Sequence record: NC_052659.1
Reading direction: 5' to 3' (one strand)
Length of the DNA stretch: 64,000 nucleotides
DNA from: Escherichia phage nieznany
A program made the translations under genes and the position numbers. Numbering within the stretch: position 1 is the stretch's first letter; every line of letters begins with the position of its first letter. The notes beneath the pieces were generated by a model, which worked only from the letters and a program-made list of their open reading frames with translations, was not told the origin of the DNA and did not search any database. Below, piece after piece: positions 9,614 to 25,377 of the stretch.

Positions 9614-9623
9614 TAAAACTTAA

Positions 9624-9646
9624 AGGCGCACTTTGCGCCTTTTTTG
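9624..9646 (+). terminator. rho-independent terminator
   Basis: 7-bp stem AGGCGCA/TGCGCCT with 3-nt loop followed by TTTTTT. Confidence 0.6.
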
Positions 9647-9716: not shown

Positions 9717-10589
9717 ATGAAAGATTTGTACCAAGATGTTTTTTCTTTTTTAGATCGCACTTCAGAAACATACACTAGAGAGAATGCAAACAAACCTTCC
9801 CACCTCGTTAACACGCATAGGGATCTCTTGGCGGGGATTTTAAGCAAACATATGGCAATGACACAGATACTGCCAAAAAACTTGTCAGAATGGCATACAG
9901 AAGGTTTTGGACATATTCACGACTTGGATTATCTGCTCTCTCCTCTTACAAACTGTTGTCTTGTTAATTATCAAGATATGTTAGAGAATGGTTTTAAGAT
10001 CGGTGCTGCACAGATAGAAAAACCAAAATCTATTGGAGTAGCTACTACCGTGCTAACTCAAATCATCCAAGCTGTTGCCTCCAGTCAGTATGGAGGTCAG
10101 ACGTGTGCGCACATTGATAAAGGTCTTAGTCCTTATGTTGAAGCTAGTTTCCTTAAAAACATGGAGATAACCAAACGTCGCTACGGTTGTTATGCAAGGA
10201 AAGAAGCCCTAGAAATGACCGAACAAGATGTATATGACGCTATGCAAACTCTTTTGTATCAGGTTAACACTTTAATGAGTGTTAATGGACAATCTCCTTT
10301 TATTACAATCAGTATGGGTCTGGATACCTCTGTTTTTGGCAGAATGATCACAGCTAACTATCTTAAAGTGCATAGTAACGGTCTAGGTAAAGATCATGTA
10401 ACGCCTGTATTCCCTAAAGTTATTTTCTTTTTACAAGAAGGTGTTAACATGAAACCTAGTGATCCTAACTACGACCTTAAGCAACAAGCTTTGGCATGTT
10501 GTGCTGATCGTATTTATCCAGATTTTATTTCTGTTCCTTTGAACAAAGAAGTTACGGGGTCAGCAGATGGCACTGTTACGAGTATGGGT
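9717..10589 (+). CDS. nrdD: anaerobic ribonucleoside-triphosphate reductase NrdD, exon 1
   Basis: GFGHIHDLDY and downstream class III RNR-like sequence; reading frame runs into the intron and stops at 10598; exon ends on a U (..ATGGGT). Confidence 0.7.
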
Positions 10590-11360
10590 AAACTATAACT
10601 GCTCATGTAAAATCTGCCTAAACGGGGGAACTCTCAACAGAGACAATCCCGTGCTAAACGTAACAGAACTCCCAACACAGAAGAAGGGGGGTACTGATAT
10701 GAGAAAACAAATTCGTGATTTTGAAGGGTATGAAATTGACGAGCTTGGAAATGTTTATTGTACCAGGTATAAGGATGAAAGAATCCTTCGCTCGTGGGAA
10801 GAAATAAACACAGGATACCAACTTGTCAGAATACGTAAAAACAAGAAAACTGTTTGCTTTCGGGTGCACAGACTTGTAGCTGAAGCGTTTTTACCCAATC
10901 CAGACAATTTACCTTATGTGAAGCATAAAGGTGACAATAGGAAAGACAACAGTGTATACAATCTTGAGTGGGGATCTTGTCCAGACAACACGCAAGAGGG
11001 TTACGATAATAACTGTTATGCTTTCTACACAAGGTGTCACAGTGTAAAAGCTACTCATAAGGCTACTGGTGAAGTTTTTTACTTTAAAAGTCTGAGATGT
11101 TGTGCTGACGCTTTAGGGTTGGACAGAAAAAGAATATCTGCAATCTTAAAGCAAGGAGCACCAAATAATTATGATTATGAGTTCTGTTACGAAATGCCTA
11201 ACGACTAGCTGTGATGAATGTAGCAGCGTAGGGTGTAAGCCTATGACACCCCAAATGGTAGACATGCTTTAAGCATGAAGATATAGTCTGATCTGCATGG
11301 TGACATGCAGCAGCACGTAATGGTGCGGGAGTGGCCTTGCGAGCCACTTTGAACATAATG
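10590..11360 (+). mobile_element. group I self-splicing intron in nrdD with internal HNH endonuclease ORF
   Basis: Conserved core AAATCTGCCTAAACGGGGGAACTCTC...AGACAATCCCGTGCTAAA (10609-10657) closely resembles the T4 td/nrdD intron core; candidate IGS GCCTA pairs with exon end UGGGU; intron ends on G 11360; splicing restores ..TSMG|CRSFLSYY.. Confidence 0.7.
10699..11208 (+). CDS. HNH homing endonuclease (NUMOD4 plus HNH_3 type), intron-encoded
   Basis: FEGYEIDELGNVY (NUMOD4-like), VHRLVAEAFLPNP and KHKGDNRKDNSVYNLEWGS (HNH); ATG 10699 with AAGGGGG SD; lies wholly inside the intron. Confidence 0.8.
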   Translation: MRKQIRDFEGYEIDELGNVYCTRYKDERILRSWEEINTGYQLVRIRKNKKTVCFRVHRLVAEAFLPNPDNLPYVKHKGDNRKDNSVYNLEWGSCPDNTQEGYDNNCYAFYTRCHSVKATHKATGEVFYFKSLRCCADALGLDRKRISAILKQGAPNNYDYEFCYEMPND

Positions 11361-12302
11361 TGTAGAAGTTTCTTGTCATACTATGCAACAGAGCAAGGAG
11401 AAAAATATGATGGACGATTCAACCTTGGAGTAGTTTCTATCAACTTGCCTCTGATTGCTGCGGAAGCGAGAAGTAAAGGAGAATCTTTCACCGATCTTCT
11501 TAATAAACATATGGAGATAGCCTACGATGCTCACATGCTACGTGTAAACCGTATCAGACATACCAAAGCATCTGAAAACCCTATTCTTTTCATGGAAGGG
11601 GCTTTAGCGCGTTTAAATGCCAACGATGAAATTGGTGCTTTGTTTGAAGGTGGTTATGCTTCTATTAGTATTGGTTATGTAGGTCTTGCCGAAGCTTTGG
11701 AAATCCTTTATCCAGAGGAAAAAGATAAAAAGGAACTAGGTAAAAACATTCTGCAACATATGAAAGATGTGTGTGCTGTGTTTAAAGAACGATCTAAGTT
11801 GGCATTTAGTCTTTATGGAACTCCAGCAGAATCCTTGTGCTATAAATTTGCAACAGCTTTAAATGAAAAATATCCAGGTCTGGTAGAAAGAGACTATCTT
11901 ACTAATTCTTTTCATCAACCTGTATGGTTGGTAACAAATCCTTTTGAAAAATGGGATTATGAAGCAGGTTTTGCACAGATTAGCAATGGTGGTAACATAA
12001 GTTATGTCGAAACACCAAACTTAAAGAATAACTTAGAAGCTTTGGAGACTTTAGTAGACTACGCTTATGAACATATTCACTATTTTGGTATTAATCAGCC
12101 CGTGGATCAATGCTTTAAGTGTGGTTTTCATGGAGAATTTAAGGCAACGGCTAAAGGGTTTGAGTGTCCTAATTGTGGCAACCATGAAGAAGAAACTATT
12201 TCTGTAGTTAGACGTGTATCAGGGTATCTTTCTGCCCCTAATTCACGGCCTTATAACAAAGGTAAAATGCAGGAAGTTTTGCAAAGGGAGAAACATCTTT
12301 GA
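11361..12302 (+). CDS. nrdD: anaerobic ribonucleoside-triphosphate reductase NrdD, exon 2
   Basis: C-terminal zinc ribbon CFKCG..CPNCG and glycyl-radical motif RRVSGYL. Confidence 0.8.
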   Translation, partial: CRSFLSYYATEQGEKYDGRFNLGVVSINLPLIAAEARSKGESFTDLLNKHMEIAYDAHMLRVNRIRHTKASENPILFMEGALARLNANDEIGALFEGGYASISIGYVGLAEALEILYPEEKDKKELGKNILQHMKDVCAVFKERSKLAFSLYGTPAESLCYKFATALNEKYPGLVERDYLTNSFHQPVWLVTNPFEKWDYEAGFAQISNGGNISYVETPNLKNNLEALETLVDYAYEHIHYFGINQPVDQCFKCGFHGEFKATAKGFECPNCGNHEEETISVVRRVSGYLSAPNSRPYNKGKMQEVLQREKHL

Positions 12303-12769
12303 ATTTTGCAGGATATGAACCTGTAGATCTTATTAATGGTGAGGGAGTTAGGTGCTCCCTCTGGGTTAGTGGTTGTAGCCACGGTTGTCGTGGCTGTTTT
12401 AACCAAAAAGCCTGGTCTTATTCTTATGGGAAACCGTTTACTGACGAAAATGTAGAGCAAGTTTTAAAAGATTTGTCAAGACCATTTGTAAAAGGTTTAA
12501 CAATTTTAGGAGGAGAACCATTAGATCCGCAGAATATTCACAATGTTAAAAGCCTTATAGAAAAGGTTAGAGACGTTTATGGGTCAAGCAAAGATATAAT
12601 GGTGTATACAGGATATACTTTTGAGGAAGTGCCTTTGTATATTAAAAATCTTGTTGACATTATTGTAGACGGAAAGTACGAAATAAACAATCCAACTACA
12701 AAACCTTTCAGAGGGTCAGATAATCAAAGATTATGGACCAAAACGGCAAGTGGTTGGCAATCAGATTAA
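12299..12769 (+). CDS. nrdG: anaerobic RNR activating protein NrdG (radical SAM)
   Basis: CSHGCRGCFN radical-SAM cysteine motif; directly downstream of nrdD; TTG start. Confidence 0.8.
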   Translation: MNFAGYEPVDLINGEGVRCSLWVSGCSHGCRGCFNQKAWSYSYGKPFTDENVEQVLKDLSRPFVKGLTILGGEPLDPQNIHNVKSLIEKVRDVYGSSKDIMVYTGYTFEEVPLYIKNLVDIIVDGKYEINNPTTKPFRGSDNQRLWTKTASGWQSD

Positions 12770-12782
12770 CTTAGGAGGTTTC

Positions 12783-12974
12783 ATGGTTACATATTTTGCT
12801 GTAGGGGATAGAGTAGGGACGGCAGGAGAACTTTTGAAGAACAGTGATCGGGACGTTAAGGACATTCTTGCAACCCTTGTGGATATTTTACAAAGAAAAG
12901 AGTTGCTTTCTGATCGAGATGTTGCTAAATTACTTGATATCGGAGGAGATGAACTTCAAAGACTTCCATTTTAA
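12783..12974 (+). CDS. hypothetical protein (63 aa)
   Basis: ATG 12783 with TTAGGAGG SD (track ORF begins at 12750). Confidence 0.4.
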   Translation: MVTYFAVGDRVGTAGELLKNSDRDVKDILATLVDILQRKELLSDRDVAKLLDIGGDELQRLPF

Positions 12975-12989
12975 GTGAGGAGATAAGTA

Positions 12990-13595
12990 ATGCAACATAG
13001 TGTAGTAGTCAACATGCCGAATAGTGGGGATAAATCTTTTGGTGTTCCTGCTAAAAAAGTATGGAAAGCCCATTTTCATCTTACTTTATCTAACGTTAGT
13101 TCTGAAGAGTTGATGAAAGCAGCTAAGATTATTGGTGCCAAATGCACAACAATTGATTTACATCGGGATACAAAGTCTCAACGTGATCGTATGTTAACAA
13201 AGTATCAAAGCGATCTCGACACTACTTTAATGTTGCAGTGTGTAGAAAAACTTGAGAATGCAGGTTTCAATGTTGTTCGTTACAAACTGGAACGAATGTT
13301 TAAACATGTTGCCTGTGTTCTTTTCATGGATCTAAGTAAAGAAAATTATGGAGAAGTTCACATTAAGACTTCAGCAAGTGATCCCGAAGTAGAAACAAAC
13401 TTCTTCCGTATTTCTTCTAATGCTGAAGAAATTGATTACCGATTTTATAATGCTCGCTTATATTCCGCAGAAGATAAGTTGCGTTTCAATGAAGCGTATG
13501 ATATGCTCTTGAACAGTGGGATACAGATAAAAGGCTACCACATAGAACAAGTTGTGGTAGATAGTAACTTAAATCTTGATGCGTGGTGGGCCTAG
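12990..13595 (+). CDS. hypothetical protein (201 aa)
   Basis: GAGGAG SD; single HLTL motif only. Confidence 0.5.
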   Translation: MQHSVVVNMPNSGDKSFGVPAKKVWKAHFHLTLSNVSSEELMKAAKIIGAKCTTIDLHRDTKSQRDRMLTKYQSDLDTTLMLQCVEKLENAGFNVVRYKLERMFKHVACVLFMDLSKENYGEVHIKTSASDPEVETNFFRISSNAEEIDYRFYNARLYSAEDKLRFNEAYDMLLNSGIQIKGYHIEQVVVDSNLNLDAWWA

Positions 13596-13596
13596 T

Positions 13597-14253
13597 ATGA
13601 CAATAAAACATATCTCTTTTGATGTATGGAATACTCTTATTTCTGCCAATCAAAACTATGCAGATGCACGTACGCACACTATTGCTACATATGGTAGAAT
13701 GTCTGAACGTGCGGCAAAAGAAGCGTATAAAGATGCCAAAGAAATTATGGATAATGCTGCACTAAATGGGTGTGCAGAAGGTGTAGCATATGCATGGAAT
13801 ATGTTGGGAAGAAAGATAGGTTTAACCCCTGTAGAATCTGCACAAATGCGTTTTGAATGTGAGCAATGGTTTCTTAAATTTCCTCCACATATCGCTTTAG
13901 ATTTGCCAGTTTGTTTGCTATACTTGTCTGGTAAATATGATCTTAGTATTAAAAGCAATACTAATTTTATATCTGGGGATATTTTGCGTCGTGCTTGTAT
14001 GTTCGACAGTTGGAATTGTTTTGAATTTATGCATTTTTCAGACGAACATCTGTTATGTAAACCAGATCCTAGATTCTTTGTTAGGACCGCCACATATTCA
14101 AGCATTCCTTTGAAGGCTGAAGAGATTTTACATGTTGGGGACAGCGAAGAATTTGATGGTAAATGTGTTGACATAGGGATTAACTTCTGTCATATTAAGA
14201 ACCCTAACGACTTACTAGAGAAACTTAAAAGAGGAGAAATTGTAAATGCGTAA
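13597..14253 (+). CDS. HAD-superfamily hydrolase-like protein
   Basis: Motif I ISFDVWNTLIS and motif IV ILHVGDSEEFDGKCVDIG in the expected order; start at ATG 13597. Confidence 0.55.
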   Translation: MTIKHISFDVWNTLISANQNYADARTHTIATYGRMSERAAKEAYKDAKEIMDNAALNGCAEGVAYAWNMLGRKIGLTPVESAQMRFECEQWFLKFPPHIALDLPVCLLYLSGKYDLSIKSNTNFISGDILRRACMFDSWNCFEFMHFSDEHLLCKPDPRFFVRTATYSSIPLKAEEILHVGDSEEFDGKCVDIGINFCHIKNPNDLLEKLKRGEIVNA

Positions 14254-15073
14254 TCAAACTCAAATTTTTGCAAATAAATTTGATGACCTGGAAACTGCTA
14301 CTTTTGATATCAAAGATTATTCAAAATTGAAATTTGGTAGTAACCAAGCTGCGCGTCGTATGGGTAAAGAATTGGCACTTCAGTTTTTTGCTCAAGTGGC
14401 AATGAAACATATTGGGGAACAATTTGTTATCATTCCTTCTCCTTATAACCATGTGCATAATGCTGCAACAATGATGACAGATCATTTTATTAATTACTTT
14501 AATATGTTGCAAGCACAATATGATCAAGGTTGTTCAGCAGAACTGGATATTATTCATCGTAAAGTTAGCTATATCAACGATTATGGTTTCTTGGATAAAG
14601 CTAGTCGTAAGAAACTTATTGATGGGGATACATTCTACTGCAACAAAGAATTCTGGGGTGATAAGAAGCTTGTGTTCATTGATGATGTAAATATCACTGG
14701 AACTCATGAAGACAAACTGATTGAGATTCTTGATGAAAATCAAGTTAAAAATGATGTTTACTTCTTGTATTTTGCAAAATATGAAGGTAATCAAGCAGAT
14801 ACTGAAGCTAAACTGAATTTTAACTACATCAATACACCAGAAGCGTTTGTTAAAATGATTAATGAAGAACGTGATGCACAGTGTCTTGTTCGTCCTATTA
14901 AGTATCTTATGGGCCAAAATCACGAAGACTTCAAAATCATTCTTAGCCAATTGCCACACTACTATGTAGAGCAACTTTTCTTCGGATGTTTGGGAGAAGG
15001 TTACAACCGAATTTCAAAGTATGCTGAAAACTTTGAATTCTTGGATCGTTACACAAAACAACACATTCTGTAA
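14246..15073 (+). CDS. type I phosphoribosyltransferase (PRTase) domain protein
   Basis: PRPP-binding signature KKLVFIDDVNITGTH; AAGAGGAG SD. Confidence 0.6.
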   Translation: MRNQTQIFANKFDDLETATFDIKDYSKLKFGSNQAARRMGKELALQFFAQVAMKHIGEQFVIIPSPYNHVHNAATMMTDHFINYFNMLQAQYDQGCSAELDIIHRKVSYINDYGFLDKASRKKLIDGDTFYCNKEFWGDKKLVFIDDVNITGTHEDKLIEILDENQVKNDVYFLYFAKYEGNQADTEAKLNFNYINTPEAFVKMINEERDAQCLVRPIKYLMGQNHEDFKIILSQLPHYYVEQLFFGCLGEGYNRISKYAENFEFLDRYTKQHIL

Positions 15074-15086
15074 TAAGGAGCTAAAA

Positions 15087-15560
15087 ATGCTTAAAATGAA
15101 AACAGGTAATCTTATTGATGCCGCTAAAGCAGGTGAAGTAACTGTTATTGCTCATTGTTGCAATTGTATGTGTAATATGGGGGCAGGAATTGCTCCGCAA
15201 ATTAAACGAGCATTCCCTTATGCATATGCGGCAGATTTAGACACAACGGCTGGTGATCAAAGTAAGTTAGGTTCTTTTAGTTTAGGGGTGCCAGACGAAC
15301 AATCAGACCCTTTGGTATATAATCTATACGGGCAATACCGTTACGGATACAATGCTAAAGGTCGTCAGTTGGACTATGATGCACTTTACGATGCACTAAT
15401 AGCTATGGCTAATGATTTGCTTCTCCGTGACCAAAAATGTAAGATCGGCTTACCTATGATTGGCGCTGGATATGCTGGAGGTAATTGGGCTATCATCCAA
15501 GTGATGATTGAAGAAACTTTAGTAAAAACAGGTCACGATGTGACTATTTATAAACTTTAA
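15087..15560 (+). CDS. macro domain protein (ADP-ribose-binding/processing)
   Basis: VTVIAHCCNCMCNMGAGIAPQIKRAFP and later IGLPMIGAGYAGGNW match the macro-domain Gly-rich loops; ATG 15087 with TAAGGAG SD. Confidence 0.65.
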   Translation: MLKMKTGNLIDAAKAGEVTVIAHCCNCMCNMGAGIAPQIKRAFPYAYAADLDTTAGDQSKLGSFSLGVPDEQSDPLVYNLYGQYRYGYNAKGRQLDYDALYDALIAMANDLLLRDQKCKIGLPMIGAGYAGGNWAIIQVMIEETLVKTGHDVTIYKL

Positions 15561-15572
15561 GAGGAGATTAGT

Positions 15573-15794
15573 ATGGGTGTTTTTGCAGGTATTGTTGCAG
15601 TGGTAAGCTTTTTTGTTATTGCTTTTATGCTTAGTTTGATTCCAGCTTGGTTACTGTTGCTGGCTTACAACTATGTTGCTGAAGTTATGGGTCATGCAGA
15701 TATCACTGTCCCAGTAACCTTCTGGACCGTGGTTTGTGTTTCGTTTATTCTGGCAGTATTACGAGGAATCTTTTCCTCTCATTCAACAAAATAA
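15573..15794 (+). CDS. small membrane protein (73 aa, two predicted TM helices)
   Basis: Hydrophobic composition; AAGAGGAG SD. Confidence 0.5.
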   Translation: MGVFAGIVAVVSFFVIAFMLSLIPAWLLLLAYNYVAEVMGHADITVPVTFWTVVCVSFILAVLRGIFSSHSTK

Positions 15795-15797
15795 GTG

Positions 15798-15825
15798 TTG
15801 ACATAGTTCTTAAAAAGAGTAAGAT
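15798..15825 (+). promoter_or_regulatory. sigma70-like promoter (TTGACA-16-TAAGAT)
   Basis: -35 15798-15803, -10 15820-15825; followed by a GC hairpin in the leader and the terC-like gene. Confidence 0.55.
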
Positions 15826-15873
15826 ATATCACATGAAGCGGGGAATAGTTCCCCGCAAAGAGAGGAGAAAAGA

Positions 15874-16848
15874 ATGCAACTCGGTTTCCCAGTTATTGAT
15901 GTAGTTGTTTTAGTTGGTATTTTGGCATTGTCTATTGGTATCGATTTCTTTGGTCATAAAGAGAATAAAGAAATTGGAATTAAATCTGCTTTGCTTTGGT
16001 CTGTTTTTTGGATTGCTTTAGCTTTAGGATATTACGCATTCATTTGGGTAGAACATGGTAAAGAGTTTGCCGCGCTTTTCCTAAGTGGCTATGTGTTGGA
16101 AAAGAGTCTTTCTGTAGATAACCTGATGGTGTTCATGGCAATTTTTGCAAGCTTTGGAATTAAGAGCACACATCTCCAACATAAGATTTTACTTTGGGGG
16201 ATTGCAGGAGCCATTGTCTTCCGAGGTATTTTTGTTGCAGCAGGGACCGCTTTGTTTAACCTTCATTGGTCGGTCCAAGTGTTGTTCGGTTTGATTGTAG
16301 CTTGGTCTGCCGTGGCTATCATCAAAGGTGGTGACGAAGAAGAGGATATTGATTACTCTAAGCATTGGGCTGTTCGTTTAGTAGGTAAAGTTCTGCCTGT
16401 GCACAATGCACTAGATGGTGAAAAGTTCATTACCATTAAGAATGGTATTAAATATGCAACTCCTGCTCTTCTTTGTGTGTTTGTTATTGAGCTTACAGAT
16501 ATTGTCTTCTCTTTTGATTCAGTTCCGGCTGTGATCGGTGTGACACAAGAACCTCTGCTAGTTTATTCTGCAATGCTGATGGCTGTTCTTGGTTTACGTG
16601 CACTTTTCTTTGTGTTAAGTGTAGCTGTGAAATATCTGGTTCACTTAGAGAAAGCTGTTGCTGTGGTTCTGGTGTTTGTTGGTGCTAAACTTATGTATCA
16701 CCCGTTCGGTGAAACACTTCATGCCAAGTGGTCATTCCTCCCGCATGATATTTCCCCTAACGTAAGTCTGATGATTGTTCTAGGCACATTATCTCTTGGT
16801 GTTATTGCAAGCTTTATCTTCCCTGAAAAAGAAGAAGCTACTGTTTAA
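15874..16848 (+). CDS. terC: TerC-family integral membrane protein
   Basis: Multi-pass membrane protein with TerC signatures EKSLSVDNLMVF and DIVFSFDSVPAVIGVT. Confidence 0.8.
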   Translation: MQLGFPVIDVVVLVGILALSIGIDFFGHKENKEIGIKSALLWSVFWIALALGYYAFIWVEHGKEFAALFLSGYVLEKSLSVDNLMVFMAIFASFGIKSTHLQHKILLWGIAGAIVFRGIFVAAGTALFNLHWSVQVLFGLIVAWSAVAIIKGGDEEEDIDYSKHWAVRLVGKVLPVHNALDGEKFITIKNGIKYATPALLCVFVIELTDIVFSFDSVPAVIGVTQEPLLVYSAMLMAVLGLRALFFVLSVAVKYLVHLEKAVAVVLVFVGAKLMYHPFGETLHAKWSFLPHDISPNVSLMIVLGTLSLGVIASFIFPEKEEATV

Positions 16849-16854
16849 TAAATG

Positions 16855-16879
16855 AGCCTCCTTCGGGAGGCTATTTTAT
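16855..16879 (+). terminator. rho-independent terminator
   Basis: AGCCTCC-TTCG-GGAGGCT stem-loop followed by ATTTTAT. Confidence 0.5.
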
Positions 16880-16890
16880 AGGAGAGACTT

Positions 16891-17241
16891 ATGAGTAATT
16901 TTGATGAAATTCAAGAACTTGTTTGGGATTTATCTGGTGATGTGGATTACGTTTTAGATTATCTTTCAAAAGTTTACCCTGGGGTAAGCGTTATGATCGT
17001 GACCAAAGATCCAATTAATTTGCCTCCTAATGTGGTAGCTTGTTGTGGGAGTGGTTCAGGGGAAGTGGAGCCTGTATCCCGTTGGGAATTAACTAAAGCT
17101 GTTTCAAAACGAAACGGTGAAGTTTTGAATATTGATATCGAGCAAATATGGACTTCTCCAGCAGCTAAATGGAATGATCCGAATGGTTGGGACTTGTTCT
17201 TCTGGGATAATGAAACTGATGATGAGGTATTTTTAAAATGA
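16891..17241 (+). CDS. hypothetical protein (116 aa)
   Basis: ORF with AGGAGAG SD. Confidence 0.5.
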   Translation: MSNFDEIQELVWDLSGDVDYVLDYLSKVYPGVSVMIVTKDPINLPPNVVACCGSGSGEVEPVSRWELTKAVSKRNGEVLNIDIEQIWTSPAAKWNDPNGWDLFFWDNETDDEVFLK

Positions 17242-17483
17242 AATACTTGTTGGTTGTGTTTGAAAATATTTGTTTTGCAATAGGGTTGTTTGTTGTAATT
17301 TTTGTATTGACAAGCGTAATCAACGGCAGTAAAGTGAGTTTATACCGAGATGGAGAGCAACTTTATTGCTTCTCTGGAGATTTCAAACACAGATGTATTA
17401 ATAGCCAAAACGAGGAAAGCAAATATGAAAAAACTAGCCCTGATTTTAATTGGTTGTATCTTTTTAACAGCTTGCGAGGATGA
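17238..17483 (+). CDS. possible small membrane protein (81 aa)
   Basis: Hydrophobic N-terminus; weak SD; overlaps the lipoprotein gene in another frame, so uncertain. Confidence 0.25.
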   Translation: MKYLLVVFENICFAIGLFVVIFVLTSVINGSKVSLYRDGEQLYCFSGDFKHRCINSQNEESKYEKTSPDFNWLYLFNSLRG

Positions 17484-17862
17484 GACAAATCCTGCACAAT
17501 ACCAACAACCTCCTCAACAATACGCTCAACAAGGATCTGACGGAGATACAACTATTATCAACAATGGTGGCGGTTCTAGTAGTAGCGGTGTTGGTGAGTT
17601 TGCTACAGGTATGTTGTTAGGGCATATGATGAGTGGCGGTAGTAATCGTAGCAGTGGGGATTATAACGATAACAGAACGATTATTAATAAGCATTATAAT
17701 ACACCTAAACCGAAAACTAATTTTTATGGTAAGCCTAAACAAGAGATAAAAACTTATGAAAAGCCGAGACAAACTTTTAAAACAAATAGTAGCTATACAA
17801 CTCGTAAATCTTACAATAGCCCTTTAAGTAAAAAGAGTTCATCTCGTAGCAAGCGACGTTAA
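17425..17862 (+). CDS. lipoprotein (signal peptide with lipobox LTAC), G/S/N-rich, basic C-terminus
   Basis: MKKLALILIGCIFLTAC at the in-frame ATG 17425; track ORF begins upstream at 17350. Confidence 0.55.
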   Translation: MKKLALILIGCIFLTACEDETNPAQYQQPPQQYAQQGSDGDTTIINNGGGSSSSGVGEFATGMLLGHMMSGGSNRSSGDYNDNRTIINKHYNTPKPKTNFYGKPKQEIKTYEKPRQTFKTNSSYTTRKSYNSPLSKKSSSRSKRR

Positions 17863-17876
17863 TAAGGAGAAAAACA

Positions 17877-18470
17877 ATGACAATTTCTATTCGTACTTCC
17901 ATTACAGGTGTTAAAAGTTTGCCTAATGCTTTGCAAATCACACGTGCTTTGAGGGATACGTTCTCTGCTGTGGATGAGCATAAGATGCTCGATAATCTCT
18001 CAAATTGGCCCTATTTTCATTATTTTAAAAATGAAGACGACGAGTTTATAGACGCTGTTTCTTACGGTTATGATTTCGGTAAGGAGGTTTCTCCTGAAGA
18101 ATTTGTAGTTATGGTGTTCCCAAACGGTTTGCCTACTCGCAGTAAACGTAAAAAAGGACCAAAAAACAAGAAACGTGCTACTAATAAAGCTACCATTTTC
18201 TTTACTGATGGCACACAATATACGATTAAAGATTTTGAAGAGGTATCTTATACAGCAGGTGGGAATCTTTCTTTCTACACCATCAAAAAACAAAACTCTA
18301 CGTTCAGCCATGTTTCTAACATGATTGAAATGTTAGTAGAAGATATTGAAAGCGTAGCTGTGTTAGGTATGCATAAAAGCTTTTTAATTACAAATATTTC
18401 AGATTTCAGTGCACGTTTATCTGGTCCTGATTTTGAAACCACGACCACGCATTTCACTTTTAAGGTGTAA
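17877..18470 (+). CDS. hypothetical protein (197 aa)
   Basis: TAAGGAG SD; no recognisable motif. Confidence 0.5.
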   Translation: MTISIRTSITGVKSLPNALQITRALRDTFSAVDEHKMLDNLSNWPYFHYFKNEDDEFIDAVSYGYDFGKEVSPEEFVVMVFPNGLPTRSKRKKGPKNKKRATNKATIFFTDGTQYTIKDFEEVSYTAGGNLSFYTIKKQNSTFSHVSNMIEMLVEDIESVAVLGMHKSFLITNISDFSARLSGPDFETTTTHFTFKV

Positions 18471-18473
18471 GTT

Positions 18474-19064
18474 ATGTATACCGAGAGAGACTTGCAACTC
18501 TTGTGGTGGGAAGTGATGCAGGAAATAAAAGAAGATTTTCCTGTTTACTACAACATGTTACGTGAAGCAGGATATAAAGCTTGTGTTAGAAACAAAGTGA
18601 ATAACTCTTTCGGTTGGTGCAACTACCGAGATAAAATTGTTGTTGTAAATTGGCACTTGCATAAGAACTCTACAAGAGATATGATCGTGGATACAATGAA
18701 GCACGAAATTGCTCATGCTATTGATGGTTGTATGGGTAAGTTTAGTAGACACGGTGCTCATTGGCAAAAACTGGCAGCAGAGTTAGGGGCTAATCCTAAA
18801 GCCACTTCCAAAGAGCCGTTGAACCACGAATATAAATATGTTCTTGTTCTGGTAGATAGGTTTGCGACAAGATGTGTTAGAGGTTATAATCGTAAACCTA
18901 ATCGCATGTACCCAGGTAAGCAACCTAATATGTGGTTGAAATCAGATAAAGAAGGGACCGAAGGAAAATTATGGTTGTATAAATGGGACGATTGGGTTAA
19001 AGTAGCTAAAGAGTACGGTGTTTCACCATATATAAGAGATGCAGAAGAGGAGAATGAAGAATGA
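18474..19064 (+). CDS. SprT-like zinc metalloprotease domain protein
   Basis: HExxH motif in MKHEIAHAIDG with downstream HGAHWQKLAAELGA, typical of SprT-like domains. Confidence 0.65.
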   Translation: MYTERDLQLLWWEVMQEIKEDFPVYYNMLREAGYKACVRNKVNNSFGWCNYRDKIVVVNWHLHKNSTRDMIVDTMKHEIAHAIDGCMGKFSRHGAHWQKLAAELGANPKATSKEPLNHEYKYVLVLVDRFATRCVRGYNRKPNRMYPGKQPNMWLKSDKEGTEGKLWLYKWDDWVKVAKEYGVSPYIRDAEEENEE

Positions 19065-20173
19065 CAAGTCCATTTTTAAAAGCAGCTACTGGCGGTCAGA
19101 AGAAGCCTGAAATGAGCGTATTTGCTGCAACAACAGATGCAAGTAAATCTGTATTCGCTCCAAGCGTGTTAGATGCCAGTCCTGTTTATGCACCAGCGGC
19201 ACCGCAAGAAGTTCCAGTTTTGCCTTCTATGACCCGACAAGAGATCGAAGAGATTGGGGCAGAGGCAGGAACAACCTTGCGTTCCTTGAATGCCGAGGTA
19301 TTAAAACATCAACGTAGTAATCAAGGCGATCAGATGAGTGAACGACTCACAGCTTTGATTAAACAGGCAAAACAACTTGATCCAAACTCTATTAAACAAA
19401 GCAAGGGTATTACTAAACTCATTAAAAAAGTTATGGGTATGAAAGAAGATCTGTTTGGGGAGTTTGATAATGTTAATAACCGTATTGAAGAGTTGGTAAA
19501 AAACCTTCAAATGGATATTCGCAAAGAAGAAGATTCCTTGGTATATCTTGAAAAGCTACATCAAGCTATTGGACAATATGCTGCAAGTTTGAACCGAGAT
19601 ATGCAGCTTCTAACAGCAACCTATGAAAAAGAAGAACAAGCTTTGGCTGCTCTTCCAGAAGATGCAGTAGAACAGCGACAAGTGATCCGAGATACTTTGG
19701 ATCTTCTGGAGATTCGTATTGCAGATTTAAAAGCATTGCGCCTACTGTGTGTCCAAATGGGACCGCGTGTACAAGGTATGCAAAAAGTTTCTGCAAGCTT
19801 AATGCGATCTGCGCGTAACATAGTAAATAATGTTATTCCTGCTTACTCTGCTAACTTCTCAATGTATATCGAGAGCTTACGTCAAATGAAAGCAGCAGAG
19901 ACGCAGAATAACGTTCTTGATGAATTTAACCTGGCAATTAAACTGGGTAGCGATCTTGCCACACAGAATCAGATCGAAGCAGCAGCACTGGCTAACCGTC
20001 AAGTGTTGGATATTGAAACTCTGCGTCACGATCAGGAAAACTTGGTTAAGATGTTGGAAGAAACTAACCGCATCAATACGGAAGCCCGTGCTGCTCGTGT
20101 TGATTATATTAATGAAGTTCAATCTTTGGAAGACGGGATGGTAGCTGCTGTGAAACGAGGGCTTGGTAAATGA
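19061..20173 (+). CDS. all-helical coiled-coil protein, possible TelA-like
   Basis: 370 aa of heptad-rich helices; size and position between terC-like and terD-like genes fit TelA, but no diagnostic motif could be confirmed by eye. Confidence 0.35.
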   Translation: MTSPFLKAATGGQKKPEMSVFAATTDASKSVFAPSVLDASPVYAPAAPQEVPVLPSMTRQEIEEIGAEAGTTLRSLNAEVLKHQRSNQGDQMSERLTALIKQAKQLDPNSIKQSKGITKLIKKVMGMKEDLFGEFDNVNNRIEELVKNLQMDIRKEEDSLVYLEKLHQAIGQYAASLNRDMQLLTATYEKEEQALAALPEDAVEQRQVIRDTLDLLEIRIADLKALRLLCVQMGPRVQGMQKVSASLMRSARNIVNNVIPAYSANFSMYIESLRQMKAAETQNNVLDEFNLAIKLGSDLATQNQIEAAALANRQVLDIETLRHDQENLVKMLEETNRINTEARAARVDYINEVQSLEDGMVAAVKRGLGK

Positions 20174-20370
20174 GAATCCGTATCTATATAATTGATGAGG
20201 ACATTGGTGTCCGTTATGATGACGAAAAACGATTCGCGCCGATGGGAGGCATATATCCCCCAAGTGTTCTAGCAGTTTGTCGTGATTGTTATATTTATGA
20301 AGGTTGTCGTAACTTCCGTAAATTCGAACTCCTTGCAGATATTGACTTCAATGAGGAGGAGGAGGAGTAA
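20170..20370 (+). CDS. hypothetical protein (66 aa, acidic C-terminus)
   Basis: Coupled ORF. Confidence 0.4.
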   Translation: MRIRIYIIDEDIGVRYDDEKRFAPMGGIYPPSVLAVCRDCYIYEGCRNFRKFELLADIDFNEEEEE

Positions 20371-20543
20371 TGAAAATATTACGAGTGAATATTGAAACTG
20401 CTTGGTGTGGATGCAATGAGGTTGTGGATATCGAAATTGAAGATGATATGTCTCAAGAGGATATAGAAGATCTTGCACACGAAACCTTTCAGGACTATTG
20501 TAATTACGGGTTCCATATTTTAGAGGAGGAAGAGGATGTTTAA
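20370..20543 (+). CDS. small acidic hypothetical protein (57 aa)
   Basis: ATG overlaps upstream stop (TAATG) after GGAGGAGGAGG; below ORF-track cut-off. Confidence 0.35.
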   Translation: MKILRVNIETAWCGCNEVVDIEIEDDMSQEDIEDLAHETFQDYCNYGFHILEEEEDV

Positions 20544-20739
20544 CTACGATAACGACCCTAATATTATCCAGTTAACCCGACAAGAACTGATCACAATCAT
20601 TGAAGATGCTTTTATTGATGGCTGGAATACACAAGACAATGATTGGGGTGGACCCGAAGCTTTTCTGGAACATCATAAAGCTTATGGAGAATTTTGTGAA
20701 ACCACTGTAGCTCTTGATAATCTGAAGGAGGGTTTGTAA
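20536..20739 (+). CDS. hypothetical protein (67 aa)
   Basis: GAGGAGG SD. Confidence 0.4.
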   Translation: MFNYDNDPNIIQLTRQELITIIEDAFIDGWNTQDNDWGGPEAFLEHHKAYGEFCETTVALDNLKEGL

Positions 20740-21302
20740 TGGGTTGTTTTAGCTTTTTGTGCAAAGAATCGGGCAAAGCTGCCCTTTCTACTTCTTTCGA
20801 CGGATCACCTTGTTATCTCTTTCTTTTGAAGGACGGTGTTGTTATTGAAGAGATGTATGGCAACTATGATAGTTATGGTTGTGTTTTCTCTGGAAAGGAG
20901 GATGAAAATGGCGTTCGTGAACGGTTCGAATGGGCTATGGATTGGGGTAAGGTTTGTGATTTAATGCATTCCTCGAATCCAAGGGATGGTATCGCTATGG
21001 TGCTGGAAGAGTATTTTACAGGTGAAATCCCTACAGAACAATCTGACGGAGATCCTAACCAAGGTTGGGGTGATGGCGAAGAAGATCCAGATTGTTTTTT
21101 CAGCACAGAAAAGAATAAGTTTAAACGTGTTGACAACCCTTATCACAAAGTGCATAATACTCTCATTGAAACAGAAGATGACAAGATGGAAATTGAAGAA
21201 GATGATCCTCTTGTAACACTTCCTATAAGTGAGTTACAAAAGATCACTAAGGAAGCTTACGATTTGGGCTTCAAAATTGGTAGAGGAGGTATGCGTGTTT
21301 AG
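20739..21302 (+). CDS. hypothetical acidic protein (187 aa)
   Basis: Coupled ORF; no recognisable motif. Confidence 0.5.
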   Translation: MGCFSFLCKESGKAALSTSFDGSPCYLFLLKDGVVIEEMYGNYDSYGCVFSGKEDENGVRERFEWAMDWGKVCDLMHSSNPRDGIAMVLEEYFTGEIPTEQSDGDPNQGWGDGEEDPDCFFSTEKNKFKRVDNPYHKVHNTLIETEDDKMEIEEDDPLVTLPISELQKITKEAYDLGFKIGRGGMRV

Positions 21303-21573
21303 ATTCAATATTCAAGAAGAAAAAAGTCAGGATTTACCTATTGCTTTCGAAGATCTTGACGTAGGGGCCACATTCATGTATTATGATGCCTATGAAGACG
21401 CAGGGTTGGATACCTACCGTAACTTGGTGTTCATTAAAAATTCCACAAACAGTGCGATTTGTATTAATGGATCACTAGCACAACGAGGCTATACTCATTG
21501 CATCCCACCAGATACAAATATGGTGGAAGTAGATTTAGAAGTTACCAATATTACACTTAAGAAGGAGAAATAA
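21295..21573 (+). CDS. small protein, paralog A of a duplicated pair (precedes the vWA gene)
   Basis: GTG start after GAGGAGG, parallel to the GTG start of paralog B; shares FxFxIxEEK..DLDVGxTF.Y..A.DE.GLD and C-terminal ..ITLK with 22595-22864. Confidence 0.45.
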   Translation: MFRFNIQEEKSQDLPIAFEDLDVGATFMYYDAYEDAGLDTYRNLVFIKNSTNSAICINGSLAQRGYTHCIPPDTNMVEVDLEVTNITLKKEK

Positions 21574-21574
21574 T

Positions 21575-22369
21575 ATGTCCGAGAAAATCAGCCTGAAAAA
21601 ACGTCAAGAAAACCTTGCTTTCTCTCTGAAAAAGAATAAGAACCTGAATGAAGGTAAGATTGTTCTTCGTGTAGCATGTGCTCTAGATATTTCTGGTAGT
21701 ATGCATGGTCTATATTCTAGTGGGGTAGTGAGTGATTTTGTAGGTAAACTGCTTCCTTTTGGTATGCTGTTCGACGATAATCAACAAATTGATATGTGGG
21801 CCTTCAATACGAGTTCCCAAGAGCTTACTCCAGCAACAGCAGACGTTTACGATGACTATGTTGGTAAATGTATGCGTAATGTTCGTATCGGAGGTGGAAC
21901 AAATTACGCCCCTGTAATGGCAGATATCTACGATGAGTATTTTGGCACTGTTACCAAATATATTACCACTAAACAAGTGGTACAAGAGGAGGCTCCAAAG
22001 AAAGGCTTCTTTAATCGTCTGCTTGGTAAAACTGAAACAGTGTCTGTAGAGCGTGAAAAAGTTGTAGCTGTATCTGAACCAGGTGCTGACGTTACCCCTG
22101 GTGTTGTATTCTTCCAGACGGATGGTGAGAATGGTGATCCTAGTGCTGTTCGTCGTCTTATTGAAGAGAATAAGAATAAACCTATTTATTGGTTCATGGT
22201 TGGCGTTGGTAATGAGAAGTTTGGCTTCCTGAAAGAACTGGCAAATGCTTATGATAATGTTGGTTTTATTGGCATTAAAGATTTAGACTTGACAGATTCA
22301 GAGCTTTATGACAAACTCTTATCTGAAGAGTTCGGAGAGTGGGTTGTTAAAGTAGGTGCTAAAAAATGA
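21575..22369 (+). CDS. von Willebrand factor A (vWA) domain protein, TerY-like
   Basis: MIDAS motif DISGS (DxSxS) near the N-terminus; N-terminal MSEKISLKK echoes the TerD N-terminus. Confidence 0.7.
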   Translation: MSEKISLKKRQENLAFSLKKNKNLNEGKIVLRVACALDISGSMHGLYSSGVVSDFVGKLLPFGMLFDDNQQIDMWAFNTSSQELTPATADVYDDYVGKCMRNVRIGGGTNYAPVMADIYDEYFGTVTKYITTKQVVQEEAPKKGFFNRLLGKTETVSVEREKVVAVSEPGADVTPGVVFFQTDGENGDPSAVRRLIEENKNKPIYWFMVGVGNEKFGFLKELANAYDNVGFIGIKDLDLTDSELYDKLLSEEFGEWVVKVGAKK

Positions 22370-22614
22370 TCGACGAGCTTGCCTCTCAAGTCGTAGAAAA
22401 TTATTGGCGCGAGAGAGAAGCTTTCATTATGCGCAGTCTCAAAGAGTATTTCATTGGGACTGTGCGAATGGAAGATATTGTAAGTAGAGTAGAGATTCAT
22501 GTATGGCCCGATTATGAAGAATGGGTTGACAAAGAAAATGAAAATGCTATAATTCTTCGTATATACAAACCGGAGATAACATTAGGAGGAAGAAGTGTTA
22601 AACTTCGAAATTGA
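22366..22614 (+). CDS. hypothetical protein (82 aa)
   Basis: Coupled ORF. Confidence 0.45.
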   Translation: MIDELASQVVENYWREREAFIMRSLKEYFIGTVRMEDIVSRVEIHVWPDYEEWVDKENENAIILRIYKPEITLGGRSVKLRN

Positions 22615-22864
22615 TGAGCAAAAAGTAAATAAACGATGCCTTACCATTAAAGATTTGGATGTAGGAGATACTTTCGTCTATGAAAATGCATTTGACGAAA
22701 ATGGTTTAGACCTTAGTGAAATCATTGTTTATTTAAAAGTAGATGATGGGGAAAATGATTATTCTGCTGTAGAACTAAACCATCATGCACAATTAGTATC
22801 AATCCAAAACACATCTAAGCTTTTGGAAGTAGAATTGACTGTAACTGGTATTACACTTAAATAA
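22595..22864 (+). CDS. small protein, paralog B of a duplicated pair (precedes terD)
   Basis: GTG start after AGGAGGA; sequence parallels 21295-21573. Confidence 0.45.
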   Translation: MLNFEIDEQKVNKRCLTIKDLDVGDTFVYENAFDENGLDLSEIIVYLKVDDGENDYSAVELNHHAQLVSIQNTSKLLEVELTVTGITLK

Positions 22865-22879
22865 TAGAGGAGACAAAAG

Positions 22880-23482
22880 ATGACTGATAAAATTTCCCTG
22901 AAAAAAGGCTCTAGCGAAAAAATTTCCCTGAAGAAAGTTGCTCCGGCTCTGAAAGAACTGCGCCTGGAATTCTCTTGGAAATCTGATTCTAAACTGGATC
23001 TGGATGTAAGTGCACTGGTTTGTCGTCACAATGCCGCTGGCAATCCTGAAATGCTGTCTGCACGTCATCTGGTTTGCTATGCTAACAAGTTTGATCCTGA
23101 ACGTTCTACCTTCGCTGGTGACGATGTTCGTGATGGGACTGGCAGCATGGAGCAGATTGATATTACTCTGGCTAAAATCTCTCCTGATGCACAAGAGATT
23201 GCCTTTGTTCTGACCATTGATGATGATACAGGTCTGAAACGTTTTGGTCATGCTTCTGAAGGTATGCTTAAAATCTTCGACTCCGAGCGTAATGTGGAAA
23301 TTCTGGATTTTGACTTCCTGGCTCCTGAAGTAGCTGGCAACACAATCTGCCACGTGGCTTCCCTGGTTCGTGAAGATGGAGAATGGAAGCTGAAAGCATA
23401 TGGTGTAGGTAAAGCTGGTCTGGATATTTGCGATGTGGTGATGGCCTTCGGTGGTAAAAAAGAATGGTATGAATGTCCATAA
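22880..23482 (+). CDS. terD: TerD-family protein
   Basis: N-terminal KISLKKGSSEKISLKK..LDLDVSALV and C-terminal GEWKLKAYGVGKAG match the TerD domain along its length; about 200 aa as in bacterial TerD. Confidence 0.85.
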   Translation: MTDKISLKKGSSEKISLKKVAPALKELRLEFSWKSDSKLDLDVSALVCRHNAAGNPEMLSARHLVCYANKFDPERSTFAGDDVRDGTGSMEQIDITLAKISPDAQEIAFVLTIDDDTGLKRFGHASEGMLKIFDSERNVEILDFDFLAPEVAGNTICHVASLVREDGEWKLKAYGVGKAGLDICDVVMAFGGKKEWYECP

Positions 23483-23500
23483 TAATTAACAAATGATTTT

Positions 23501-23521
23501 GAGGGGGAGAAGTCCCCCCTC
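23501..23521 (+). terminator. GC-rich hairpin, possible terminator
   Basis: GAGGGGGA-GAAG-TCCCCCCTC immediately after terD; weak T-tract. Confidence 0.35.
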
Positions 23522-23550
23522 TTGCAATAAAGCCTCTATCGTGTTATACT
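23522..23550 (+). promoter_or_regulatory. sigma70-like promoter with extended -10 (TTGCAA-17-TGTTATACT)
   Basis: -35 23522-23527, TGn plus -10 TATACT 23545-23550; upstream of TTG start 23583. Confidence 0.5.
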
Positions 23551-23582
23551 AGAAGTTCGTTAACTTAAAAAGGAGGCAAAAT

Positions 23583-24104
23583 TTGCTGATAAAAAACTTT
23601 GTAACAGTTGCGTTACTATCCTTAACTGCTTTTACATTTACACCTGTTGTGGCGAAAGCCGAAGCTGCAAACGTAAAAACCGCTAAAGTAGTTCACAAAT
23701 GTACAAAGCAATATAATGATAAAATTCTATTAGCTTGTGCAATTTACGCAGAAGGTCGCGGTCTGGGTAAAAAAGGAATGAATGCCGTTGGGAATGTGGT
23801 AATCAACAGAAGAAATGATGCCTACTTCCCTAACACAGTCAAGGGAGTCTTGTTCCAGAAAGGGCAATTCTCATATGCGAAAACTTTTAACGTGACAGAG
23901 AAAGATAAGTGGCAGGAAGCAAAAGCAATAGCGGAGCGTTTACTTTATTTAGAGAAACATTTTCCTGAATTGCGGTCTGTTTTAGATGTTACTAAAGGTG
24001 CTCTATACTTCAAGAAACGGAATATAAGGACACACTGGGAGCGTGATATGCGTCTTGTTTATCGAGATAAAGTGCATGGTTTCTATCTACCAAAGGGGAG
24101 TTAA
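23583..24104 (+). CDS. secreted SleB-like cell wall hydrolase
   Basis: Signal peptide MLIKNFVTVALLSLTAFTFTPVVAKA; AIYAEGRG, GNVVINRR and QFSY motifs typical of the SleB/Hydrolase_2 family; TTG start after AAGGAGG. Confidence 0.6.
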   Translation: MLIKNFVTVALLSLTAFTFTPVVAKAEAANVKTAKVVHKCTKQYNDKILLACAIYAEGRGLGKKGMNAVGNVVINRRNDAYFPNTVKGVLFQKGQFSYAKTFNVTEKDKWQEAKAIAERLLYLEKHFPELRSVLDVTKGALYFKKRNIRTHWERDMRLVYRDKVHGFYLPKGS

Positions 24105-24105
24105 A

Positions 24106-24789: not shown

Positions 24790-24805
24790 TATAACGGAGG
24801 GGAGA

Positions 24806-25369: not shown

Positions 25370-25377
25370 GAGAGAAA

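Follow-up and report, generated by a model that had tools for sequence, protein, structure and literature searches.

A HAD hydrolase–PRTase_3 gene pair and a separate macrodomain gene near the Ter-type genes of an Escherichia phage

Do three consecutive phage genes that encode a HAD hydrolase, a phosphoribosyltransferase (PRTase) and a macrodomain protein, and that lie close to Ter-type genes, form a single functional module? The question is raised by a 64,000-nt stretch of DNA from Escherichia phage nieznany (sequence record NC_052659.1), here termed the window. The phage is a Phapecoctavirus, an E. coli myovirus of the phAPEC8/ESCO13 type. In 2012 Anantharaman, Iyer and Aravind are said to have linked ter genes to PRTase and HAD enzymes and to have predicted a nucleoside-like metabolite as the product; Pfam family PF15610 was defined for this association. 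To our knowledge, what Ter systems do biochemically has not been established, and the predicted metabolite has not been identified. A preliminary description of the window treated the three genes as one coherent module. The analysis presented here indicates that the trio consists of two separate units, a HAD-PRTase_3 pair and an unrelated, very common phage macrodomain.

All three genes are open reading frames on the + strand at the positions first described, and their folds are those first proposed. The HAD gene (13597–14253) and the PRTase gene (14246–15073) overlap by 8 nt, ATGCGTAA. The PRTase gene is separated by a 13-nt spacer with a Shine-Dalgarno sequence from the macrodomain gene (15087–15560). 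The macrodomain open reading frame spans positions 15021–15560, but the annotated start in relatives corresponds to 15087, with TAAGGAG just before it. Sixty-three phage genomes carry the 4-kb region with an identity of 90% or more, thus the three genes are real and are not chance open reading frames. The nucleotide metabolism genes nrdD/nrdG adjoin the HAD-PRTase_3 pair in the window.

Four Ter-type genes, all with profile matches above cutoffs and all on the + strand, are found within 8 kb. These encode a TerC/Alx-family membrane protein (15874–16848; PF03741, E-value = 3e-40; TIGR03718, 318.6 bits with a cutoff of 246.4), a TelA-family protein (19061–20173; PF05816, E-value = 3.2e-33), a vWA-TerF-like protein (21575–22369; PF10138, E-value = 1.6e-37) and a TerD-domain protein (22880–23482; PF02342, E-value = 3.2e-28). 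The trio had been placed directly upstream of the Ter-like genes. This is nearly so, but a 73-aa hydrophobic membrane protein (15573–15794, + strand), conserved in phage phi92, separates the macrodomain from TerC. A terminator-like GC hairpin 3′ of TerC (16855–16872, + strand) is probably the end of a transcription unit that would start after another hairpin at 9622–9642. The 116-aa protein encoded beyond it (16891–17241, + strand) also follows TerC in two further phage loci, L037 and L039. An Rfam scan of positions 12900–17300 gave no match upstream of TerC, whether to the Mn riboswitch or to another RNA, and PADLOC gave no defence-system match for the HAD, PRTase, TerC, TelA or vWA proteins.

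The first gene had been described as encoding a HAD-like phosphatase. Its similarity to Pfam PF00702 is under the gathering cutoff (E-value = 1.2e-3), and NCBIfam HAD-IA subfamilies match with E-values down to 1.3e-8. The AlphaFold model (pLDDT 96.6) displays a Rossmannoid HAD fold with a C1 cap, and a Foldseek comparison with known structures assigns it to HAD-IA with a probability of 1.0 to 2om6, NANP and YfnB. HAD motifs I (with the nucleophile Asp), II, III and IV are kept, i.e. none of D9, S120, K155, D182 and D187 varies among 43 sequences. In HAD phosphatases the D+2 position is occupied by the general-acid Asp. Motif I of the phage protein is SFDVWNTL: it departs from the DxD motif, with its general acid/base Asp, in having a Trp at D+2 (FDVWNTL), and this Trp is invariant family-wide, fused proteins included. 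Dehalogenases and further HAD enzymes that are not phosphatases are among the Foldseek neighbours. Because of the Trp at D+2 and these structural neighbours, the phosphatase chemistry of the HAD protein is uncertain.

The second gene product, described earlier as a type I PRTase, matches Pfam PF15610 (PRTase_3) with 145.3 bits (cutoff 28.7; E-value = 2.9e-42) over profile positions 9–264 of 264. The PRPP loop, FIDDVNITGTHE, is intact. DD..TGTHE is invariant among 59 sequences that are 45%–79% identical, as are 40 other residues. By sequence, no match was obtained in the PDB and only the fold search was informative; it shows the type I PRTase fold, as had been claimed, with ComF as the best structural match. 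ComF is a protein of DNA uptake, with no clearly defined enzymatic role. The phage protein has in addition a C-terminal helical domain at approximately residues 186–275. From the conserved residues it is plausible that PRTase_3 and the HAD protein are catalytically competent. We know of no substrate or product for any PRTase_3 or partner HAD, and a literature search found no functional work on PF15610/PRTase_3 or on a Stephanstirmvirinae phosphoribosyltransferase.

HAD and PRTase_3 are an obligate pair. By tblastn, the HAD protein and PRTase_3 each match 155 phage records, and the two sets break down identically by organism. HAD is immediately 5′ of PRTase_3 in 23 of 24 loci from the genome collection, and it is likewise upstream in every cultured and metagenomic phage locus examined, with a gap of about 1 kb in L037. 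Among the top 150 family representatives, 12 are single polypeptides in which the two are fused in the same order.

The pair is associated with Ter genes in bacteria and in at least four phage lineages. In Bacteroidota the operon order is TerD-TerD-HAD-PRT-TerD-(vWA x3, PP2C, kinase)-TelA-TerC. One fused HAD::PRT gene is the last gene in a TerD/vWA/TerY/PP2C/kinase operon, and a second one is situated between TerD and vWA-TerF on a phage-like contig. Of six contigs from uncultured large phages, four have TelA, vWA-TerF, TerC and TerD no more than 10 kb from the pair, and a vWA-TerF-like protein occurs together with the pair in eight phage loci. TerD is present in 147 phage records, approximately the same set as the pair, including Caulobacter and Brevundimonas jumbo phages. 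It was not detected in rhizobial genomes and Rhizobium phages, which do carry the pair, and the rhizobial copies in the genome collection have no Ter genes nearby. Frameshifts interrupt several of these rhizobial copies, suggestive of phage-derived DNA in decay. The PP2C and kinase domains were seen only in bacterial relatives of the module: no PP2C or kinase Pfam match was obtained among the proteins scanned at positions 12299–24104, a set that leaves out several small open reading frames, and no PADLOC match to the TerY-P triad (vWA, PP2C and Ser/Thr kinase) was obtained among the seven module proteins scanned, vWA included. The proposed Ter link of the PRTase and HAD enzymes is thus upheld by PF15610 membership, by the Bacteroidota operons and by the presence of the pair beside Ter genes in several unrelated phages.

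The third gene encodes a stand-alone, ALC1-like macrodomain of the SCO6735/BT1257 type. Its match to Pfam Macro (21.8 bits) is just short of the cutoff of 22, but the macrodomain fold that had been proposed is evident from PDB matches to 5e3b (E-value = 6e-13), BT1257 (E-value = 1e-8) and TARG1 (E-value = 2e-6). DarG profile models also match (E-value = 1.6e-8 and 1.6e-10). Residues that are kept include Asn26, the Gln at the catalytic position (NLYGQY, aligned to NMIGQH) and the diphosphate loop GAGYAGG. The protein is most plausibly an ADP-ribosyl hydrolase that counters a DarT-like defence. No functional work on the Phapecoctavirus macrodomain was found in the literature. Macrodomains have been reported in about 41% of myoviruses (PMC9503650). 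The upstream 201-aa gene was considered as a 2H phosphoesterase partner of the macrodomain and was rejected; it is without Pfam, NCBIfam or PDB support and is absent from phi92.

The preliminary description offered, as an alternative to a Ter-type metabolite, a single pathway in which all three genes make or destroy an ADP-ribose or NAD-derived molecule and so act against NAD-depleting or ADP-ribosylating defences. The HAD-PRT-macro order is indeed conserved in two genera, Phapecoctavirus and Justusliebigvirus, whose PRTases are only 65% identical, and in phi92 the macrodomain open reading frame overlaps the PRTase gene. Macrodomain homologues are also located 6–8 kb from the pair in the metagenomic phages L031 and L033, and two lineages of Rhizobium phages have genes for NAD salvage (NMNAT/Nudix, NadR and PnuC) at distances of 0.2–5 kb from it. 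However, these two genera are sister genera, and they are the only ones where the macrodomain adjoins the pair. The macrodomain is absent from all 24 genome-collection loci of the pair. None was found in the 7–10 kb around the pair in Caulobacter, Brevundimonas and Rhizobium phages and in four of six metagenomic phages (in the phages of these three hosts the search covered 6–10 kb on each side), nor in the 10 kb around the pair in Klebsiella phage KP13-16, a member of the window phage's own subfamily. While 12 of the top 150 PRTase_3 representatives are HAD fusions, phmmer detected no macrodomain in any of the 150, fused ones included. The macrodomain family is also about 20 times more widespread than the pair (2981 versus 155 phage records).

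The Vequintavirinae provide a further comparison. Cronobacter phage PBES02 displays the same macro/cell-wall-hydrolase/primase synteny as the window, and neither the pair nor Ter genes were detected in its 14.5-kb locus. As the synteny is the same where the pair is lacking, the macrodomain appears to be part of the ancestral backbone. Finally, the locus is without an adenylyltransferase that could turn a ribose-5-phosphate adduct into an ADP-ribose derivative. A single pathway is therefore quite improbable, and the coherent trio is not sustained. The suggestion of ADP-ribose or NAD processing against defences fits the macrodomain, but not the HAD-PRTase_3 pair.

The explanation that is probably correct, and which is held here with reasonable confidence, is that the pair is the enzymatic arm of a phage Ter module and the macrodomain is a separate ADP-ribosyl hydrolase. 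The folds, motifs, coupling, co-occurrence and fusions are shown by the results above; for the substrates, product and biological role we infer the following. HAD and PRTase_3 constitute a translationally coupled two-enzyme cassette, which would work with TerD, vWA-TerF-like, TelA and TerC proteins in a phage-borne Ter module. PRTase_3 is predicted to use PRPP as the donor of 5-phosphoribose to an acceptor, and so to form a ribonucleotide-like adduct. The HAD protein would then hydrolyse this adduct, most simply by removal of the 5′-phosphate, to yield a nucleoside-like small molecule which would work alongside the Ter proteins in the infected cell. When 20 loci were clustered all against all, no further conserved enzyme was found beside the pair, so two steps alone would lead to the product. 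The macrodomain would most likely strip ADP-ribose from phage DNA or some other substrate of host ADP-ribosyltransferases (e.g. DarT2), in a role analogous to that of chimallivirus AdfM.

A bolder form of this explanation can be considered, with some doubt. Large lytic phages of several unrelated lineages may carry a minimal and self-contained Ter module (TerD, vWA-TerF, TelA and TerC with HAD-PRTase_3), whose two-enzyme branch makes a PRPP-derived nucleoside-like effector or signal during infection, and the Phapecoctavirus macrodomain might in addition process a ribosyl adduct of the pathway. In this extended form the proposal is unlikely.

PRTase_3 could also be a regulator that binds PRPP, a nucleotide or nucleic acid, in the manner of ComF, PyrR or PurR, with the HAD protein as an accessory hydrolase. 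The extra C-terminal helical domain would be in keeping with such a function. On the other hand, the 59 sequences, for all their divergence, show no variation in the PRPP loop or in many putative active-site residues, and to be obligately paired with a hydrolase, or fused to it, is typical for enzymes of successive metabolic steps. A purely regulatory role is given a low probability. Least probable of all is a Ter-independent, non-canonical salvage of NAD or nucleotides (e.g. by a nicotinamide, nicotinate or other base PRTase) in support of phage replication: the NAD-salvage genes close to the pair in Rhizobium phages, the adjoining nrdD/nrdG genes and the Ter-less rhizobial copies could be cited for it, but a phosphatase step following the PRTase would undo salvage, the dominant and repeated association of the pair is with TerD, vWA, TelA and TerC in bacteria and at least four phage lineages, and several of the rhizobial copies are the frameshift-split ones that suggest decay.

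The analysis shows that HAD-PRTase_3 is an obligate, sometimes fused unit that recurs with TerD, vWA, TelA and TerC in many large phages. The carriers of the module include tractable E. coli phages (phi92, phAPEC8 and BASEL members), and E. coli K-12 is, as far as we know, without a ter operon. With two enzymes only and a K-12 host, the phage module is an uncluttered setting in which to identify the product and to learn what the Ter proteins do. If the bolder form of the explanation is true, the two-enzyme phage version would be the simplest system for identifying the long-postulated Ter metabolite. Separation of the macrodomain from the pair avoids a misleading trio model, and draws attention to an orphan macrodomain of the Gln type, carried by thousands of phages, that is a candidate for counter-defence.

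The best solved relatives of the window macrodomain are SCO6735 of Streptomyces coelicolor and BT1257, at the E-values given above for 5e3b and BT1257. All three have the conserved Asn, the catalytic-position Gln and the Gly-rich diphosphate loop, and all are stand-alone proteins of about 150 aa. SCO6735 removes the thymidine ADP-ribose made by DarT, and its Gln85 is essential (PMC9411070). The DNA-positioning residues K34 and K89 of SCO6735 are however Ala and Gly at the aligned columns of the phage macrodomain, and the equivalent of Val25 is Cys. AdfM, the anti-DarT2 macrodomain of chimalliviruses, is a phage precedent (PMC13309987). Like the window protein, AdfM is a phage-encoded orphan macrodomain of the ALC1-like class, and DarG profiles detect the window protein. 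In contrast, the catalytic Lys (K80 in DarG, K78 in AdfM) is Gln in the phage macrodomain, and BLASTP against PhiKZ gp104 (AdfM) gives an E-value of 0.012 over 22 residues. The window macrodomain also differs from DarG2 in being without the DarT-binding domain. Its NCBIfam DarG score is 34.2 bits versus a cutoff of 250.

PRTase_3 is only 9% identical to the competence protein ComFC, which also has the type I PRTase fold, in an alignment of about 146 of 275 residues; it differs from ComFC in its distinct C-terminal helical domain and in its genomic context. In the synthesis of alpha-ribazole by CobT and CobC, phosphoribosyl is transferred to a base and dephosphorylation then yields the riboside. 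The same two-step logic is proposed for the pair, as an analogy only, since the enzyme families are unrelated. A further comparison is with the Ter-associated PRTase/HAD genes of 2012 (PF15610). The PRTase is far above the family threshold, the HAD partner and the TerC, TelA, vWA-TerF and TerD neighbours are present, and the bacterial relatives are inside TerD/TerY/PP2C/kinase operons. The window pair differs in that it is phage-encoded and consists of two enzymes only, no ATP-grasp or other biosynthetic partner having been detected, and in that the Ter genes of the window are scattered over 8 kb among uncharacterised phage genes. The pair, with its Ter genes, is an uncharacterised phage representative of the already known Ter-linked PRTase/HAD type.

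The 4-kb region around the three genes shares 99% identity with genomes of Phapecoctavirus (ESCO13, phAPEC8 relatives), a genus of E. coli myoviruses in the Stephanstirmvirinae with genomes of ~150 kb; records of these phages label the genes 'hydrolase', 'hypothetical protein / putative orotate phosphoribosyltransferase' and 'phosphatase'. The HAD gene (13597–14253, +) and the PRTase gene (14246–15073, +) overlap by 8 nt (ATGCGTAA), and a 13-nt spacer separates the latter from the macrodomain gene (15087–15560, +). The start at 15087 is that annotated in relatives and is preceded by TAAGGAG; the open reading frame reaches back to 15021. Terminator-like hairpins at positions 9622–9642 and 16855–16872 bracket what is probably one transcription unit, extending from nrdD to TerC.

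The nrdD gene of the window (anaerobic ribonucleotide reductase; 9717–12302, +) is split into segments 9717–10598 and 11331–12302, and an open reading frame inserted in it (10567–11208) resembles an HNH-type homing endonuclease. nrdD is uninterrupted in ESCO13 (1815 nt) and is annotated as spliced in phi92; the insertion is probably a mobile intron. Just 5′ of HAD is a 201-aa gene (12990–13595, +) whose stop codon precedes the HAD start by 1 nt. Two PADLOC 'AbiEi' antitoxin models hit it over nearly the whole model length (E = 4.7e-13 and 4.4e-12). Pfam, NCBIfam and PDB sequences give no match, and phi92 lacks the gene. A role in counter-defence as an orphan antitoxin-like gene is possible.

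The preliminary description assigned the three products to the HAD, type I phosphoribosyltransferase and macro domain folds, and each assignment is upheld. The HAD sequence matches NCBIfam HAD-IA subfamilies (E = 1.3e-8), with Pfam PF00702 giving only an under-threshold E-value of 1.2e-3; its AlphaFold2 model (pLDDT 96.6) has a Foldseek probability of 1.0 to PH0253, NANP/HDHD4, YfnB and haloacid dehalogenases. The PRTase is a member of Pfam PF15610, PRTase_3 (E = 2.9e-42), with a type I PRTase core of ~146 residues and an extra helical domain at residues 186–275. The macrodomain matches the solved structures of SCO6735 (5e3b, E = 6e-13), BT1257, TARG1 and Thermus DarG, as well as DarG profile models.

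In the HAD family the nucleophile Asp, motif I (SFDxWxTL) and motifs II–IV are invariant. HAD phosphatases have a general-acid Asp at D+2, whereas this position is always Trp here, fused copies included. Thus the label 'phosphatase' carries a caveat, and HAD may catalyse something other than ordinary phosphomonoester hydrolysis. The HAD gene also has two alleles within Phapecoctavirus (~100% and ~77% aa identity), while the adjoining PRTase stays 98–99% identical, which indicates local recombination or mosaicism at the HAD gene.

HAD and PRTase_3 form an obligate, translationally coupled and sometimes fused pair. A tblastn search of 50,697 phage records finds each in exactly 155, with the same organism breakdown. 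The two are adjacent, HAD first, in four divergent groups of cultured phages: Stephanstirmvirinae, Kleczkowskaviridae together with another Rhizobium phage, and the Caulobacter and the Brevundimonas jumbo phages (both Dolichocephalovirinae). In a genome collection with a single genome for each prokaryotic species, 24 loci were found, 23 of which have a HAD homologue immediately 5′ of the PRTase. A PRTase_3 profile search over 1.84 billion representatives gave 854 relatives, and 12 of the best 150 are single HAD-then-PRTase_3 polypeptides. Other representatives (P0230, P0248, P0251, P0273, P0313, P0336; 540–1150 aa) carry two or three tandem PRTase_3 domains, and P0217 has the order PRTase_3-HAD-PRTase_3.

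The pair is recurrently linked to the Ter core. Ter-like genes had been placed directly downstream of the trio; TerC/Alx (TIGR03718, 318 bits), TelA, vWA-TerF-like and TerD do follow within 8 kb, but a gene for a 73-aa membrane protein intervenes before TerC. The proposed connection of PRTase and HAD enzymes with ter genes is borne out elsewhere. Bacteroidota loci (Mucilaginibacter, Chitinophagales, others) have the order TerD-TerD-HAD-PRT-TerD, then TerD or three vWA genes, PP2C and a kinase, and then TelA and TerC. One fused HAD::PRT gene ends a TerD/vWA/LemA/TerD/TerD/vWA/Band_7/TerY/PP2C/kinase operon, and another, on a phage-like contig, is flanked by TerD and vWA-TerF. Of six contigs from uncultured large phages (143–350 kb), four have TelA, vWA-TerF-like, TerC and TerD no more than 10 kb from the pair; in the remaining two, a DUF2828/DUF7788 protein adjoins it. 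Klebsiella phage KP13-16 (Stephanstirmvirinae) shows TerC ... vWA-TerD-TerD ... TelA ... HAD-PRT. TerD is found in 147 phage records that almost coincide with those of the pair; it lies ~30 kb from the pair in Caulobacter and Brevundimonas phages and was not found in Rhizobium phages among the records searched. Clustering of 20 loci gave HAD/PRT, TerD, vWA-TerF, TerC and TelA as the only widely shared families, with no further enzyme, e.g. ATP-grasp, accompanying the pair in phages. This linkage matches the association of Ter genes with PRTase and HAD on which PF15610 was presumably defined.

Several other neighbours were seen. A 116-aa protein (16891–17241, +) directly 3′ of TerC, found likewise in KP13-16 (locus L039, 363–728) and a metagenomic phage (L037, 793–1179), may be an unrecognised TerC partner. 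Downstream of TerD (23583–27950, +) are a cell-wall hydrolase of SleB type (PF07486), which has a hydrophobic segment in its N-terminal part and is annotated as endolysin in relatives, and then four glycosyltransferase-like genes. In two T4-like metagenomic phages (L031, 10967–12562; L034, 7152–8555) the pair adjoins a DUF2828/DUF7788 protein, with RNA ligase genes nearby; Ter genes were not found near it. In Rhizobium phage RHph_I1_18 a TerC-family (YjbE) gene is annotated ~5–6 kb upstream. In rhizobia the pair occurs alone, at differing sites on chromosomes and plasmids, and several copies are frameshifted; this DNA looks phage-derived.

In the proposed pathway, PRTase_3 would condense PRPP with some acceptor, HAD would then hydrolyse what is formed, in the simplest case releasing the 5′-phosphate, and the resulting nucleoside-like molecule would serve the TerD/vWA/TelA/TerC apparatus during infection. 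Later papers credit the prediction of a 'nucleoside-like metabolite' to the original Ter PRTase/HAD paper. A salvage function of the pair is less likely, though hinted at by NAD-salvage genes 0.2–5 kb from it in two Rhizobium phage lineages (NMNAT/Nudix; NadR-like NMNAT and PnuC; L002, 6283–6855; L038, 11135–12762). A non-catalytic, ComF-like role of PRTase_3 is also less likely; its PRPP loop is intact.

The trio does not hold together as one module, and a single ADP-ribose pathway that includes the macrodomain is less likely than the Ter-linked pathway. The macrodomain has homologues in 2981 phage records (from T-even-like, rV5-like and FelixO1-like phages and many more), and a published survey reports macrodomains in 41% of myoviruses (PMC9503650). 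None is present in the 24 genome-collection loci, within 6–10 kb of the pair in Rhizobium, Caulobacter and Brevundimonas phages and KP13-16, or in the long PRTase_3 representatives (best 150 of 854); in two metagenomic phages one is 6–8 kb from the pair with many genes between. Outside the Stephanstirmvirinae, Cronobacter phage PBES02 (Vequintavirinae) encodes the closest homologue (52% identity); the 14.5-kb locus analysed from this phage lacks the pair and Ter genes. There the macrodomain gene is followed by one small open reading frame, a SleB-like cell-wall hydrolase and, further downstream, a primase-helicase. The window keeps this order, but with 8 kb of Ter-block genes between macrodomain and hydrolase. 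Thus the macrodomain, which is separate from the pair, looks like a backbone gene around which Ter-related genes were placed. A different macro-plus-PRPP-enzyme neighbourhood is seen in Vibrio phages Dax and Thalassa (matches H93, H95), where a homologue (~40% identity) adjoins an annotated ribose-phosphate pyrophosphokinase gene.

PRTase_3 is a catalogued family whose association with Ter and HAD genes is likewise on record, and the Ter genes of phi92-like phages were noticed earlier; literature searches turned up no functional study of the pair in phages. Added here are the separation of the trio, co-occurrence and fusion evidence in numbers, and a minimal Ter module with two enzymes, recognised across unrelated large phages that include tractable E. 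coli phages. The phage pair makes the Ter metabolite question accessible to experiment.

In alignment with SCO6735 and BT1257, the macrodomain keeps the Asn of AHxCN, the Gln of N-x-x-G-Q and the Gly-rich diphosphate loop, and is best described as a putative Gln-type, ALC1-like ADP-ribosyl hydrolase. SCO6735 strips DarT-made ADP-ribose from DNA thymidine and rescues cells from DarT, and its Gln85 is essential (PMC9411070). ADP-ribosylated DNA is the leading candidate substrate. T4 without both known anti-DarT factors is still DarTG2-resistant (PMC11825919), and T-even phages carry homologues of the window macrodomain; this is suggestive only. The two DNA-positioning lysines of SCO6735, however, are missing from the aligned columns of the window macrodomain. 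A 2026 study showed that AdfM, a phage-encoded DarG2-like macrodomain, protects chimalliviruses from DarTG2 (PMC13309987); the direct similarity of AdfM to the window protein is negligible, and AdfM of PhiKZ has Lys at the column where the window macrodomain has Gln.
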